Notes: generated by a model from the sequence alone, not told the origin. Positions 27,641 through 38,483 are shown, counted from the stretch's first letter. The stretch is 40,308 bases of DNA from Betaproteobacteria bacterium (GCA_003153335.1 PLYG01000275.1:12917-53224), one strand, 5' to 3'. Program-made: numbers and translations.

Positions 27641-27681
27641 CTTTCCCTCAAGCCCATCGACTTCGTCTTTGGGCTTTTTTT
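27641..27681 (+). terminator. Conserved terminator module, copy T1
   Basis: CTTTCCCTCAAGCCCATCGACTTCGTCTTTGGGCTTTTTTT. The stem is AAGCCCA/TGGGCTT, the loop is conserved and a U tract follows. Confidence 0.75.
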
Positions 27682-27835
27682 CATGCCCTCGGCGGCTAAC
27701 GGTCCCCCAGTCCGTCTCGCCCGACAATGCCCCTGAAACTTCGCACTCGCTGGCGGATTCGTCATCGGACCACGGCTTACCCTGTCGCGCACCACATTCC
27801 ATGGGCAATGCTTTCTTTCTTCCATGGAGACCAAC

Positions 27836-28333
27836 ATGAGTGCGAACAAGCTCTACGACGCAGCCAAGCATCTGGTGCCCTCACTGCGTTTTGCCCCAAC
27901 TGACCCATCGCTCTACACTAGCTTTTCAGTGGTCTATCACCCGACCGGGATCGTGTGTTTTTTCTCGCACTATCGAATCGGTTCCCTGCTGCTCACCCGC
28001 GCCACCCCCGACGAAGACGGGACGTGGCACATCGAAACCGGGTACAAAAGGCACGTCGATGACCTGTTCTTCTTGGGCTTCGAGGATTTCGGCGAGTTGT
28101 TCATGCATCCGGACCCGCAGTCGTTTGCTTTCGAGTATTACCGCGAAGGCATCCGCAAGTTCCTGCGCGCTCTCGACGCAGCCGCGCGCTTTGAAACGCA
28201 GCGCATTCCCGAAGAGTTCTGCGCCGTTCACGGTCAGAACAATGGACGCGTCATCATCCGCCTGACCACAGCGCTCCGGCATCGCATCGCTGTTCCTACC
28301 GCCGGGACCTACCCCACCCTGTATCCTTTCTGA
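27836..28333 (+). CDS. Hypothetical protein
   Basis: GGAG lies 6 nt before ATG 27836. An alternative start lies at 27824. Confidence 0.6.
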   Translation: MSANKLYDAAKHLVPSLRFAPTDPSLYTSFSVVYHPTGIVCFFSHYRIGSLLLTRATPDEDGTWHIETGYKRHVDDLFFLGFEDFGELFMHPDPQSFAFEYYREGIRKFLRALDAAARFETQRIPEEFCAVHGQNNGRVIIRLTTALRHRIAVPTAGTYPTLYPF

Positions 28334-28346
28334 CTGGAGCAACCCA

Positions 28347-28736
28347 ATGAACACCGCTGCAAACTGGTTCATCCAGAATAAGCTGCAACGGGCCCAGTCG
28401 GCCTTCACCACGGCAATGAGCAGAATGCGTCGTGCCCGGAACTTGCGTGAGTTGATGCAGGGCCGCAACGTCCACGTCGAGTCCTTCGTCCACTGTCTGG
28501 TCCGTTCTGAAGAATCCCGCGCAGATCGCCTCCGCGAAGAACTGGCAACCACGATGGTCGAAGCCCACCTCAAGGAAATTGAAACCCTGCCACTGGACCA
28601 ACGCCAAGCAAAGATTGGCGAATTCATGCGGCGCGACTGGTGTTTCCTGCGGGGCAATGAACCGCGTCTTTACCGCCGCATCGAAGTCGAAAGCGCCCGA
28701 CTCACGCGCGACCTGCCACGACCGCCGTTGCCCTGA
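28347..28736 (+). CDS. Hypothetical protein, helical and Arg/Glu-rich
   Basis: RBS CTGGAG before ATG 28347. 129 aa. Confidence 0.6.
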   Translation: MNTAANWFIQNKLQRAQSAFTTAMSRMRRARNLRELMQGRNVHVESFVHCLVRSEESRADRLREELATTMVEAHLKEIETLPLDQRQAKIGEFMRRDWCFLRGNEPRLYRRIEVESARLTRDLPRPPLP

Positions 28737-28764
28737 ACCAAGATTCCCTCCGGTTTTTCTCTCT

Positions 28765-28803
28765 CTCCCCTCAAGCCCATCGACTTCGTCTTTGGGCTTT
28801 TTT
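28765..28803 (+). terminator. Conserved terminator module, copy T2
   Basis: CTCCCCTCAAGCCCATCGACTTCGTCTTTGGGCTTTTTT. Confidence 0.75.
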
Positions 28804-28828
28804 CATGGGGGATTCCACGTTTTGCAAA

Positions 28829-28857
28829 TTGCGTATATGCCCATAATAGGGGATAAT
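28829..28857 (+). promoter_or_regulatory. Promoter-operator copy P7
   Basis: TTGCGT (28829-28834), a 17-nt spacer, then GATAAT (28852-28857). ATGCCC-ataata-GGGGAT lies at 28837-28854. Confidence 0.55.
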
Positions 28858-28874
28858 GACCGTGACGGGTAATT

Positions 28875-28943
28875 GGCCTCGGAGAAGAATTGGTTACTTC
28901 CGGCTCGAAAGAGCTAGCGGTGGGTTCGAACCCCATCGAGGCA
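28875..28943 (+). ncRNA. tRNA-like cloverleaf lacking an anticodon loop (GAAA tetraloop instead)
   Basis: Hand fold. Acceptor: GCCTCG (28876-28881) pairs with CGAGGC (28937-28942). D arm: GAAG-aattggtta-CTTC. Third arm: GGCTC-GAAA-GAGCT. T arm: GTGGG-TTCGAAC-CCCAT. It starts about 11 nt after the predicted P7 transcription start. Confidence 0.45.
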
Positions 28944-29020
28944 GCGGGGGCACCCGGCAATTGCCCGTTGCCGAATTGAATGGAACCAAAGCCTCACGAC
29001 GTTGGAGTTGAAATAGAGTG

Positions 29021-29359
29021 ATGCTGGGCCGTTCCAAAGACAAGCTGCGAGATGGTGGTGTCATGGCGAGTAAGGTGATCGCTGAGGAAGTCGATGACGA
29101 CGGTGCCAAAATGGTCAGCATCACGCTGCATTGCGGCGACCGTCCATCGCGTACGTGGGGCAAGTTTGCAACCGAGGCCCTCACCATCGCCTGTATGACC
29201 GGTCGCGCAATGAGAGTTGAACTCAACGACTGGGTGTGGTCGCTCGATACCCGCCAGTTGAAGTCGGGCATCACCCTTGCCGAACGTGGGCGCGAACTGG
29301 CCGACAAATGGCGCAGAGACGTAGCTTCGAATACAGCAAAGGAACGTAAGCATGGCTGA
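29021..29359 (+). CDS. Hypothetical small protein, first gene of the DUF5131 operon
   Basis: The ORF starts at ATG 29021, with an alternative start at 29063 after GGTGG. Its stop overlaps the start of the next gene. Confidence 0.55.
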   Translation: MLGRSKDKLRDGGVMASKVIAEEVDDDGAKMVSITLHCGDRPSRTWGKFATEALTIACMTGRAMRVELNDWVWSLDTRQLKSGITLAERGRELADKWRRDVASNTAKERKHG

Positions 29360-36415: not shown

Positions 36416-36669
36416 AATTGTGGCGCCGAAATTTCATTACCTCCTGTGCTGTTATAGGTCTGAAAAGAATGATTGGCATCGCACTGGTGCTGCCCTCAAG
36501 CGCGGCTTGCCGACTCTCAAGGCTGTTGTGCTGTAAAGCCCGTCTCGGCTGTCAGCTTTATCTACCCCCGCAGCGCATTTCCTGAGCAACGCCAATCGTC
36601 AGTCACTTCCGACTCGACGCCTTTGTAGACCTTCCGCGACCTCACGGCCGCATAAATCTGGAGATCACC

Positions 36670-37065
36670 ATGAAGCTGATGCCCCTGTCTTCCCTGCTGG
36701 TTCTTTCGCGCAACATCGATGCGTGCATTCTGGATGTTCAGCGTGCCCTCAACTCGTTGCGCCTCCTGAACGACAAGAGCGCTTGCGGTCAACTTTCCAT
36801 GTTCGGTCTCGACGTTCTGGAGCAAACGCTCATGGACGCCAAGGCTGACCCGGAAACGGCTCCGAAATGGCTCGCGCATGTCTCCGCTGATTCCTACCTG
36901 CTTCGCGCCACCGTGAAGCAATTGATCATCGAAAACCTGCGCCCCGGCTTCACCATGACTCTCGGTGAAATCACGCGTCGCCCGAAGCAGATCACCGCCG
37001 ACCATCGCCACGTCAATGTCAAGCGCAGCACCCGCCGATTCACGCGGATTGCTCTCAGCGCCTGA
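36670..37065 (+). CDS. Hypothetical protein
   Basis: RBS CTGGAG before ATG 36670. 131 aa. The antisense ORF 36562..37176 is treated as a shadow ORF. Confidence 0.6.
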   Translation: MKLMPLSSLLVLSRNIDACILDVQRALNSLRLLNDKSACGQLSMFGLDVLEQTLMDAKADPETAPKWLAHVSADSYLLRATVKQLIIENLRPGFTMTLGEITRRPKQITADHRHVNVKRSTRRFTRIALSA

Positions 37066-37122
37066 CCCTCTGTACGCCATCCCGGCGCTCCGACTGCGTG
37101 ACTCACCGCACGCGTCGGTCCT

Positions 37123-37161
37123 CTTCCCCTCAGCCCTCGAACTTCGTTCTTGGGCTTTTTT
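37123..37161 (+). terminator. Conserved terminator module, copy T7 (variant loop)
   Basis: CTTCCCCTCAGCCCTCGAACTTCGTTCTTGGGCTTTTTT. Confidence 0.7.
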
Positions 37162-37378
37162 CATGGCTGGACGCAATCGAGTGACTGGACCGAGGTTTTC
37201 TTATCACTCGCCGTTGAACATTTCGGCAGCAATGGGCGGCGTTACCAGATTTTCTCCCCTTCCGCGTGCAGAGATTTTCGTGCAAGCGCATTCCCATCAG
37301 GCGTCATACCGCGTTTCTGGAGCACCCCGCCGGCTCCACCCGTGTCACCTCCCTCTACCTGCACGCATAGGAGTCCCC

Positions 37379-37585
37379 ATGCAAGCCCTTGATCGCTTCT
37401 GTTCTACCGCCCACAACCATGGATTCAATCTCGCCATCAGCGCAGTGCCCGGCCGCATCATCGCCGAGAACGCTGATCGCCGGGTCGAGGTCCAGCTCAT
37501 CGGCAACGATCTCCAACTCATCGCCGGCTTCGACGCCGCGATGCAACAACTCTTCTTCAACGTTCCGCTCACCGCGAACGACTGA
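37379..37585 (+). CDS. Small protein, paralog family member 4
   Basis: RBS TAGGAG before ATG 37379. ...TAHNHGFNLAISAVPGRIIAENADRRVEVQLIGNDLQLIAG. Confidence 0.6.
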   Translation: MQALDRFCSTAHNHGFNLAISAVPGRIIAENADRRVEVQLIGNDLQLIAGFDAAMQQLFFNVPLTAND

Positions 37586-37604
37586 AGTGGACTCGAACCA
37601 TTTC

Positions 37605-37643
37605 CGCGCCCCTGACCTCCCCCGGTCCGGGGCGACTTTTTTT
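37605..37643 (+). terminator. Intrinsic terminator (distinct sequence)
   Basis: CGCCCC-N16-GGGGCG followed by ACTTTTTTT. Confidence 0.6.
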
Positions 37644-37733
37644 GTCCAGAGCCTGCCGACCGTCTCGACCGGCATTCTCTCCGCCCGCATCACATCTCCA
37701 GCACAACGCCCTTCCACTCCAACAAGGATTCCC

Positions 37734-38417
37734 ATGAACACTGCCGTCGCTTCACCCGTCGCCGTGATCGAAAACCAGCCGTGGGTTCCTGCATGTGGAG
37801 GCTCCGAGAAACCCTCGACCACCCGCGCTGGACGCCTGATCCAGTATGTGTGGCAACCCGAGACCGGACTGCATCGCTATCTCGATCTGCAGACCAAAGC
37901 CATTCTGCCGGTGTCATTCGATCCCGCTCTTGACGGTTCTCCCGATGATTCTTCACTCTGGCGTCCCTTCAGTGCATTCTTTCTGCACCGCTCGCCGCCG
38001 ATTCTCACCGTCGTACTTGCCACCTGTCCTCCGCAGGGTCCAATTGTGAGCTGGCAATCGTCATTCGACCTCCCGGTCCGACGCGGCTCCGTTTACGATG
38101 TCACACCGACCGTGCTCAACGAAGGTCGCCGTGCAGACAATCACGACGACTTTTCCGCCATGCTCGGCCGCGTAACCGAGAGTGGTACGCGCGTCAGTTG
38201 TGATGTTGACAGCCGCGACCAAGCCCTGCAGATCGCCGATGTCGTTTCACGGGTACTGCGTACCGAGGCTCCGGCTTTGGTTTGCAACATGCCGCTCTAT
38301 CAGTTCACCGCTGCTCGCGAACTGCTGAAGACTTTCGGAGGCAATCCAGAGCTACTGACATTGGAGATGAAGATTCTCGCCTTCGGCCATCAACAACCGT
38401 CCTCGTACAACTGGTAA
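37734..38417 (+). CDS. Hypothetical protein (C-terminus ...SSYNW)
   Basis: RBS AAGGA before the internal ATG 37734. 227 aa, followed by T8. Confidence 0.6.
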   Translation: MNTAVASPVAVIENQPWVPACGGSEKPSTTRAGRLIQYVWQPETGLHRYLDLQTKAILPVSFDPALDGSPDDSSLWRPFSAFFLHRSPPILTVVLATCPPQGPIVSWQSSFDLPVRRGSVYDVTPTVLNEGRRADNHDDFSAMLGRVTESGTRVSCDVDSRDQALQIADVVSRVLRTEAPALVCNMPLYQFTAARELLKTFGGNPELLTLEMKILAFGHQQPSSYNW

Positions 38418-38440
38418 TCCCAGCGCCCGCTTCTGCGGCT

Positions 38441-38483
38441 TCCCTCCCACCTGCCCATCGACCTCCGTCCTTGGGCTTTTTTT
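38441..38483 (+). terminator. Conserved terminator module, copy T8 (divergent)
   Basis: TCCCTCCCACCTGCCCATCGACCTCCGTCCTTGGGCTTTTTTT. Confidence 0.65.

Follow-up and report, generated by a model that had tools for sequence, protein, structure and literature searches.

A probable family of conserved intrinsic terminators specific to one plasmid-like lineage, with signs of sequence exchange among its copies

What does one and the same hairpin sequence do behind gene after gene of a single element, and how have its copies stayed so alike? The question is raised by a 40,308-nt stretch of DNA from a Betaproteobacteria bacterium (GCA_003153335.1, PLYG01000275.1:12917-53224; the whole stretch is referred to below as the window), in which a module of ~45-50 nt occurs eight times between 27.6 and 38.5 kb. 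Terminators are usually treated as anonymous, fast-drifting hairpins, whereas here a single sequence recurs at least 11 times along the same element, has persisted at orthologous positions between elements whose proteins are 40-75% identical, and is the same over 48 nt at unrelated sites of different elements. We consider it probable that the modules are one homologous family of Rho-independent terminators, specific to an uncultured plasmid-like lineage, whose copies have exchanged sequence. The feature itself is real and is not an ordinary one.

A repeat finder returned a single family of eight direct 42-nt copies, all on the plus strand, at 27642, 28765, 32502, 34050, 35696, 36377, 37123, and 38444. 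These lie within 1-4 nt of the eight co-oriented copies proposed in an earlier sequence-only reading of the same DNA. The 25-nt core occurred five times with at most one mismatch, compared to 0.00 expected from 100 dinucleotide-preserving shuffles. A covariance model made from seven type A copies (the types are defined below) recovered all eight window copies with scores of 35-79 bits, and elsewhere in the 40 kb it found one weak site, at 23092-23146. Codon-position GC and the genes called on the source contig show that the gene strand between 24 and 38.4 kb is the plus strand, and the modules are thus intergenic and located downstream of genes. The hairpins start 36-72 nt past the preceding stop codon, in agreement with the earlier observation that each copy follows a stop codon, with the exception of copy 6, which is found ~300 nt past the last called gene. 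Simple scans found no other clean intrinsic terminators in the rest of the window, no Rfam family matched anywhere in it, and a tRNA scan with ARAGORN was negative.

All copies share one fold, consisting of a GC-rich basal stem of 5-7 bp (AAGCCCA/UGGGCUU), a 2x2 internal loop, an apical stem of 3-4 bp (GAC/GUC), and a loop of 3-4 nt. The whole two-part hairpin is 24-27 nt long and is followed immediately on its 3' side by U6-7 in each of the eight window copies. Its interior, previously described as a 13-nt loop, is really a structured inner hairpin with a stem of 3-4 bp. This inner hairpin has the form GAC-UUC-GUC or one of the variants GAAC-CUC-GUUC and GAC-CUCC-GUC, and the copies fall into three types on this basis: copies 1-5 are type A, copies 6 and 7, in which the inner stem is GAAC/GUUC, are type B, and copy 8 (GAC-CUCC-GUC) is type C. 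Folding of 61 nt per window copy gave energies of -11.8 to -18.3 kcal/mol, with about -12 to -13.4 kcal/mol for the module hairpin alone. The 20 nt upstream are 75-95% pyrimidine and terminate in CCCCTC or a close variant; a pyrimidine content of at least 80% is seen there in seven of the eight copies versus 1.4% of all 20-nt segments in the window. Beyond CCCCTC, the pyrimidine tract is conserved by composition and not by sequence. On the other side of the hairpin, the run of T6-7 is often followed by CATGG, and the CATG noted before in five copies was found in those at 27642, 28765, 32502, 34050, and 37123.

The element extends beyond the window, which is 99.99% identical to the ENA metagenome scaffold L089 over an 11.2-kb overlap, and the window, L089, and L099 are chained by 100% overlaps into ~59 kb of sequence. 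The covariance model identified three additional copies further along this element, at L099 2427-2455 (with a weakened U tract and followed by the element's typical promoter), L099 3172-3228, and L099 5154-5210, giving at least 11 copies placed in one element. The last of these is on the minus strand and has a weakened U tract. It is located directly behind a minus-strand gene (5214-5729), and the orientation of the module thus follows transcription. In our view, no other single observation speaks so strongly for a module that is read in transcription and not as a strand-specific DNA site. With this copy, the fit to an intrinsic terminator suggested earlier is well supported by anatomy, position, and orientation.

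Searches with the 272-aa and 281-aa (amino acid) proteins of the window led to one true relative, L082, and to several phage contexts that are unrelated and have no modules (L085, L087, L088, and L093-L096). Together with L097, L082 represents a second lineage (Logan contigs from another study's samples), in which the proteins are 40-75% identical and the aligned coding DNA 59-73% identical to those of the present element. L082 opens with a partial module at the contig start, followed by an unrelated minus-strand LprI-like gene, a 168-aa gene, an extra gene, a 131-aa gene, and a module, and continues with a promoter, DUF5131, a 259-aa gene, and on to the methyltransferase and a module. With respect to the genes in common, its three modules come in the order of modules 1-3 of the window, and one of them has a compensatory change of G:C to C:G in the stem with the loop unchanged. 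In L097, modules are found behind a 170-aa and a 114-aa gene, and the corresponding genes of L099 are likewise followed by modules. Further removed is a third lineage (L100; 41-54% protein identity), which also has terminators at these two positions; they retain the pyrimidine tract ending CCUCCCCUC, U5, and CA, while their stems are quite different (GCGCUC/GAGCGC and UCCCCA/UGGGGA). Between lineages the module is ~88-100% identical compared to 59-73% for the flanking genes; CATGG recurs in both lineages, and the loop is almost invariant though a stem pair flips. In the 14 distinct module sequences, 96% of the cells are paired and four of ten pairs have changed on both sides. None of 500 shuffles matched the observed pairing percentage, the counts of two-sided changes, or the covariation score, and registers slid along the alignment were 9-60% paired. 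The shared gene positions and the compensatory stem changes indicate that the modules are old, orthologous, and structure-constrained elements at operon ends, as terminators should be.

The family appears to be confined to this lineage. The covariance model had no matches in 1.35 Mb of unrelated phage loci, and neither the exact 25-mer nor a degenerate 28-mer was found in 185,579 species-representative GTDB genomes or in IMG/VR. In the JGI metagenomes the degenerate 28-mer gave one match, to contig L086. Sensitive blastn against PLSDB returned only chance matches of 26/28 within Thermus TnpB genes (E 0.03), with no hairpin. As a negative control, 80 unrelated phage loci carrying DUF5131 relatives in IMG/VR (at most 50% identity) were inspected, and none of them had a module.

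Several observations indicate that sequence has also passed from copy to copy. L086 matches the window with 88% identity for 586 nt, starting exactly at the first base of module 5 (35697), and nothing in the window or its relatives corresponds to the gene upstream of this point in L086, which indicates a mosaic junction at module 5. In run X3, from a closely related strain whose flanks share 92-99% identity with the window, the module at position 8 has a type A loop and not the type C loop, and in runs X1-X4 the type C module is also present with entirely different flanks. Module 2 and the copy at L097 9462 share 48 identical nt (CTCTCCCCTC ... CATGGGG) at non-orthologous sites behind unrelated genes; at the position in this element that truly corresponds to L097 9462, there is a degenerate copy. 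Because the shared positions vary among other copies that look functional, an identity of 48/48 cannot be put down to selection on every base, and recent exchange between copies, within and between elements, is the simpler reading. The summed contig depth on the module core was ~407 in X1 and ~165 in X3 versus 4-8 on the flanks, and ~16 listed flanking sequences were not found in the window or in the first 9.4 kb of the extension (L089), L099 being outside this search. Judging by the core depth and the foreign flanks, the communities appear to hold more copies than the eleven placed. Homologous recombination between repeated terminators is known to cause deletions in engineered circuits (PMC2991278).

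These features suggest how the modules might work. Having completed a small operon, the polymerase would transcribe the pyrimidine-only leader, then the two-part hairpin of 24-27 nt, and then the U6-7 tract, where the transcript would be released. As no A tract is found upstream, the module would halt transcription from its own gene direction only. A purine-free leader cannot pair with the stem arms or with the U tract, and we propose that it insulates the folding of the hairpin; it probably keeps the upstream gene from trapping the hairpin and would make the module portable. Direct repeats of 30-48 bp are adequate substrates for homologous recombination, and copies may thus recombine or convert within and between elements, by which they would stay near-identical and occasionally leave a mosaic junction at a module. 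What the sequences show directly is the anatomy, the placement, and the orientation rule of the modules, their conservation at orthologous sites with compensatory changes, and exchange between copies; termination and its efficiency, the role of the pyrimidine tract, and any role of the leader, the loop, or CATGG are what we infer from them.

Four points weigh against this reading. Module 2 is the only one of the eight with a recognizable promoter behind it (scoring at least 8/12), and that promoter is located outside the repeat. The other units may therefore have unrecognized promoters, or the modules may be partial terminators (attenuators) in longer transcripts. Second, in the RNA data, which comprise sparse assembled contigs with a depth of 0-6 from four metatranscriptome runs, two contigs from run X13 span a module, which could reflect read-through or contaminating DNA. 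Third, the loop, CCCCTC, and CATGG are kept in elements with 40-75% identical proteins, and one 48-nt match is exact; this confirms the earlier remark that conservation exceeds what termination needs, and it hints at a second function. Fourth, the evidence for exchange consists of a few cases, all from short-read assemblies.

The best surviving alternative, which we hold to be possible but rather unlikely, is that the modules are boundaries of mobile cassettes like the PeSL repeats of T4-like phages. Their main role in evolution would be that a gene and its terminator could leave as a circle and re-enter at any other module, by which ORFans (genes without known relatives) would be shuffled among a community of related plasmids. 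Such a process has a precedent in the PeSLs (PMC2839356, PMC4122927). It would account for a mosaic junction exactly at module 5, for ORFans in module-flanked single-gene units (281 aa between modules 3 and 4, 131 aa between modules 6 and 7), for exact repeats of 36-48 nt, and for a module-core depth in X1 and X3 that exceeds that of the flanks many-fold, with ~16 foreign flanking sequences. However, the unit order is the same in L082, the only relative covering 27.6-32.5 kb. The gene differences are not bounded by modules: the 106-, 177-, 109-, 110-, and 67-aa genes of L082 and the 113-aa gene of the window differ inside units, with no module at their edges. Four near-identical contigs, which come from different samples, run collinear with the window, and in the contigs examined we saw no module-bounded gain or loss of genes and no circular or deleted forms. 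Two joints, 34088>38495 and 38444>35697, were considered as module-to-module deletions and rejected, as inspection traced them to module copies lying in other sequence or to a site where the module type differs. The orthologous positions across three lineages further argue that most copies are old residents. Shuffling by recombination at the repeat, which the sequence-only reading had put forward, is partly supported: the junction at module 5, the difference in type at position 8, and the extra copies with unrelated flanks speak for it, while the conserved unit order in L082, the differences inside units, and the four collinear contigs speak against cassette shuffling as the main story.

It is unlikely, though worth weighing, that the modules combine termination with another, sequence-specific task, in which the CCCCUC leader, the loop, and CATGG are read by an RNA-binding protein, an antiterminator, or Rho. 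The primary site of Rho binds YC dinucleotides. In a variant of the same idea, the 3' untranslated region (3'UTR) tail would be an anti-Shine-Dalgarno regulatory RNA, CCUCC/CCCCUC being complementary to ribosome-binding sites of the GGAGG type; in the icaR 3'UTR, a UCCCC motif pairs with the gene's own Shine-Dalgarno sequence. The retention of the CCUCCCCUC tract in L100 despite changed stems fits such a job, as do the almost invariant loop beside a flipped stem pair and the presence of CATGG in both lineages. Against it, only composition is conserved outside CCCCTC, individual copies vary at the positions of the loop, CCCCTC, and CATGG, and Pfam searches of the ~50 window open reading frames (ORFs) found no RNA-binding or antiterminator domain, only helix-turn-helix regulators, an HU-like protein, and enzymes. 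For the binding site or processing signal suggested before, neither a binding protein nor a processing signal was identified. We also find it doubtful that a portable, self-insulating terminator serves at the same time as a shared recombination patch of a peat and soil plasmid community, an equivalent on plasmids of the phage PeSLs, with units of gene and module traveling and the leader or loop read by a factor or acting as an anti-Shine-Dalgarno 3'UTR RNA. If this were true, the conservation would be a result of both exchange and a second function.

It is very improbable that the modules are sites for a recombination system of their own, whether site-specific or acting on single strands, in the manner of attC sites, REP/RAYT elements, or selfish MITE-like repeats. 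The hairpin repeats do occur at the 3' end of each unit in a single orientation, as in integron arrays, and the element has two TnpB (IS605 OrfB) genes. However, RYYYAAC/GTTRRRY cores are absent from the modules, the modules are absent from the 185,579 reference genomes, and no integrase, Y1 transposase, or other recombinase was found by Pfam among the ~50 window ORFs or among the genes called on L001, L089, and L099. There are no terminal inverted repeats past the stem and no target duplications; the orientation follows the gene on either strand, and the conserved U tract is not needed by a DNA recombination site. A feature of the minus strand, either a small ORF (ATG AAA AAA GCC CAA AGA CGA AGT CGA TGG GCT TGA) or a 5' stem-loop with a GAGGGG ribosome-binding site, could be read from the CAT after the T run (ATG in reverse) and from CCCCTC, whose reverse complement is the Shine-Dalgarno-like GAGGGG, but we reject it because types B and C have frame-breaking indels, three of the eight copies are without the ATG, no start codon follows GAGGGG, the genes are on the plus strand, and the variation is compensatory for structure and not synonymous for a peptide.

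The preferred reading, of one terminator family closing the units of this region, can be followed copy by copy. Module 1 (27630-27686, type A; 73.7 bits) is located after a 126-aa gene ending at 27578, and its hairpin (27650-27676; AAGCCCA, inner GAC-TTC-GTC, TGGGCTT) is followed by T7 and CATG and has a folding energy of -13.4 kcal/mol (z -3.5). Module 2 (28753-28809, type A; 76.4 bits) follows a 129-aa gene ending at 28736, with its hairpin at 28773-28799, T6, and CATGG, and has a counterpart at the same gene position in L082 (2034-2085). Module 3 (32490-32546, type A; hairpin 32510-32536, -15.8 kcal/mol, 75.6 bits) carries a T to G change that adds a pair; it follows a 200-aa methyltransferase gene ending at 32468, and its counterpart is the module at the end of L082. 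Module 4 (34038-34094, type A; hairpin 34058-34084, 79.4 bits) closes a single-gene unit, 33148-33993, encoding the 281-aa ORFan, for which no real homologue was found among 5.8 billion proteins. Module 5 (35684-35740, type A; hairpin 35705-35729, 74.2 bits), where the homology to L086 begins, has a basal stem of 6 bp. The two type B copies are 95% identical. Module 6 (36366-36420; hairpin 36386-36410, AGCCC, GAAC-CTC-GTTC, GGGCT; -11.8 kcal/mol, 36.3 bits) is the copy found ~300 nt after a gene, in this case one of 84 aa, and module 7 (37112-37167; hairpin 37132-37156, 35.4 bits) closes the single 131-aa gene at 36670-37065, which is flanked by the two. Module 8 (38431-38488, type C; hairpin 38453-38476, GCCCA, GAC-CTCC-GTC, TGGGC; 36.5 bits) follows a 227-aa gene ending at 38417, and its fold of -18.3 kcal/mol for 61 nt includes a second, upstream hairpin. 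All eight are on the plus strand, as is the weak site at 23092-23146, which has a pyrimidine tract, an AACCTCA ... TGAGGTT hairpin, and T7 (21.8 bits, E 0.013) and sits between the converging genes 22433-23068 (plus) and 23160-23690 (minus). This site is a possible distant ninth member, but a weak one, and may be an unrelated terminator.

Between 27.6 and 38.5 kb, 15 of the 17 scanned ORFs had no Pfam match. Between the 84-aa gene and module 6, ~290 nt (36087-36377) are without a called gene; the first ~185 nt of these (36087-36272) align with L086, inside the alignment that is 88% identical overall. The segment may hold a small RNA or an unannotated small gene terminated by module 6. Directly after module 8, repeated non-coding units of ~45-110 nt are found at 38490-39100, with a further occurrence at 22284-22328, and in the distant L100 (2022-2506) the corresponding terminator is likewise followed immediately by related repeats. 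These could be an origin, small RNA genes, or binding arrays. The module region also has an unusually strong negative GC skew (-0.15 to -0.21), with an excess of T on the coding strand.

Apart from the promoter behind module 2, no motif or promoter was found to be common to the sequences following the modules. That promoter is of the sigma-70 type (TTGCGT-17-GATAAT, 28829-28857, plus strand), 20 nt past the module, with a palindromic operator ATGCCC-N6-GGGGAT in its spacer, and the pairing of module and promoter is also found in L082 and L089. Seven promoters of the window are of one design, at 1373, 5923, 10898, 18657, and 28840 on the plus strand and at 7359 and 4866 on the minus strand. In these, a -10 element TATAAT/GATAAT is overlapped by the palindrome ATACCC-N6-GGGTAT, as also seen at ~2120 in L082 and ~245 (minus strand) in L089, and one of them directly precedes the TnpB gene at 1376-2614. 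The shared palindrome suggests that one repressor may control the whole element. The leader of ~160 nt after the module 2 promoter (28858-29017) contains a tRNA T-arm-like sequence, GGTGGGTTCGAACCCCATC, at 28919-28937, in which ARAGORN finds no tRNA, as well as a 23-nt box (28874-28896) that recurs upstream of the methyltransferase gene (31758-31780). Two further motifs precede genes in the window. The 22-nt motif CAGTCCGTCTCGYCCGWCAATG, at 9201-9222, 18609-18630, 21863-21884, and 27708-27729 and in weaker form at 3889 and 10428, is located upstream of several plus-strand genes, including the promoter of topoisomerase III and the unit after module 1, and is a possible binding site of a regulator. 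The motif CATTCCRTGGGCAATGC, at 27795-27811 and 33105-33121, is found 12-30 nt before the start codons of two otherwise unrelated genes and is conserved in L082 (~735).

The same genes were found on contigs from several peat, soil, and permafrost samples, and a 63.9-kb scaffold extends the element to ~66.5 kb in window-equivalent coordinates. Its proteins include a topoisomerase III that is 38% identical to TraE of IncP-1 plasmids and a ParM/Alp-like partition ATPase with 14-nt iterons upstream of its gene, as well as HU-like, RadC-like, VRR_NUC, two TnpB, TIR, GHKL, and SLOG proteins, DUF5131, and the methyltransferase. For a conserved 606-aa protein, the only matches are distant ones to conjugative megaplasmids of Burkholderia, Pseudomonas, Cupriavidus, and Stenotrophomonas; no phage matched. 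The replicon is thus probably a plasmid-like element of an uncultured, probably proteobacterial, host. Megablast found no close relatives of the 27-39 kb region in PLSDB or INPHARED. Just before the ParM/Alp-like gene, whose start is near 40031 and whose end is beyond the window, the TTGCAC-type iterons with their spacing of 14 nt (39797-39973) resemble a centromere of the parC type. The same iteron words form a smaller cluster at 32962-33008, before the 281-aa ORFan gene. Among the regions 12000-19000 and 33000-40308 that were considered, a lower-GC island (53-56%) encodes TIR, trypsin-SLT, and other proteins on both strands and is without modules. Two metagenome contigs mapped onto the window, of 46.2 and 63.9 kb, both stop at ~2597, near the 3' end of a TnpB gene, where assemblies break at the insertion-sequence repeat; a second TnpB copy is found in the extension (L089 5140-6177). 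At L089 3667-4194 (~45.5-46.0 kb in window-equivalent coordinates), the extension has a gene for a pilin-like protein whose domain, ComP_DUS, is that of a receptor for DNA uptake sequences. At L097 10423-12744 a 773-aa AcrVA2-like (anti-CRISPR-like) gene is found, and at the same position of the present element there is only an 83-aa N-terminal remnant (L099 2541-2792).

If the copies act as recombination patches, the idea developed for PeSLs, of repeats that insulate small adaptive genes and make them exchangeable, would extend beyond T4-like phages to plasmid regions with ORFans and genes that look anti-defense (DUF5131, the methyltransferase, and the AcrVA2-like gene in the relative). In terminator design, the conserved pyrimidine leader stands out as a feature awaiting explanation, and it is open to direct test. 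In practical terms, the module is a candidate for a compact, context-insulated, one-directional terminator, and it provides a sequence tag by which an otherwise unannotated plasmid lineage can be located in metagenomes.

Several known systems share part of these properties. Like ordinary Rho-independent terminators, the modules have a GC-rich hairpin with a direct U tract 36-72 nt past a stop codon and are co-oriented with the gene. However, ordinary terminators are mutually non-homologous and drift freely, whereas the modules form one family with exact identities of 36-48 nt, a conserved loop, a CCCCTC leader, and frequent CATGG. REP/BIME sequences, which are associated with RAYT transposases, and Neisseria DNA uptake sequences (DUS) that pair as terminators are extragenic palindromes after genes and act as terminators or mRNA stabilizers. 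They differ in having hundreds to thousands of chromosomal copies, REPs being accompanied by a Y1 transposase, while the module is found only in this lineage and has a U tract and an orientation rule. No Y1 (IS200-like) transposase was found among the scanned ORFs, only TnpB (OrfB_IS605), and the covariance model found no module copy near the TnpB genes. The ComP_DUS-like pilin of the extension recalls Neisseria uptake sequences. Like the modules, integron attC sites are imperfectly paired hairpins that recur at the 3' end of the units in a co-oriented array. The modules differ from these by the absence of R/L cores (R''/L'', L'/R') and, among the scanned ORFs, of IntI, by units of up to five genes, by the orientation rule holding on both strands, and by the conserved U tract. 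The features of MITEs are also absent, as there is no inverted repeat except the stem and no flank duplication, and the positions are orthologous across three lineages.

The PeSLs of T4-like phages, which are repeats of a strong early promoter and a terminator stem-loop, are located among ORFans and recombine, giving mini-circles (PMC2839356, PMC4122927). Both are short conserved regulatory repeats with a terminator stem-loop and a degree of similarity that would permit recombination, placed densely among small, mostly ORFan genes. Both have lineage-specific sequence types, and both have been proposed as junctions of gene gain, loss, and replacement. They differ in that a PeSL includes a consensus sigma-70 early promoter, while the module is a terminator alone, with a promoter at a variable distance behind some copies. 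Mini-circles and repeat-bounded gene gain and loss have been demonstrated for PeSLs, while none were seen in the contigs here, and the carrier is plasmid-like (ParM-like partition genes, a TraE-like topoisomerase III, and no phage match) and not a T4-like myovirus. PeSLs are thus the closest described system, and the modules, although not classed as PeSLs, resemble their terminator half.

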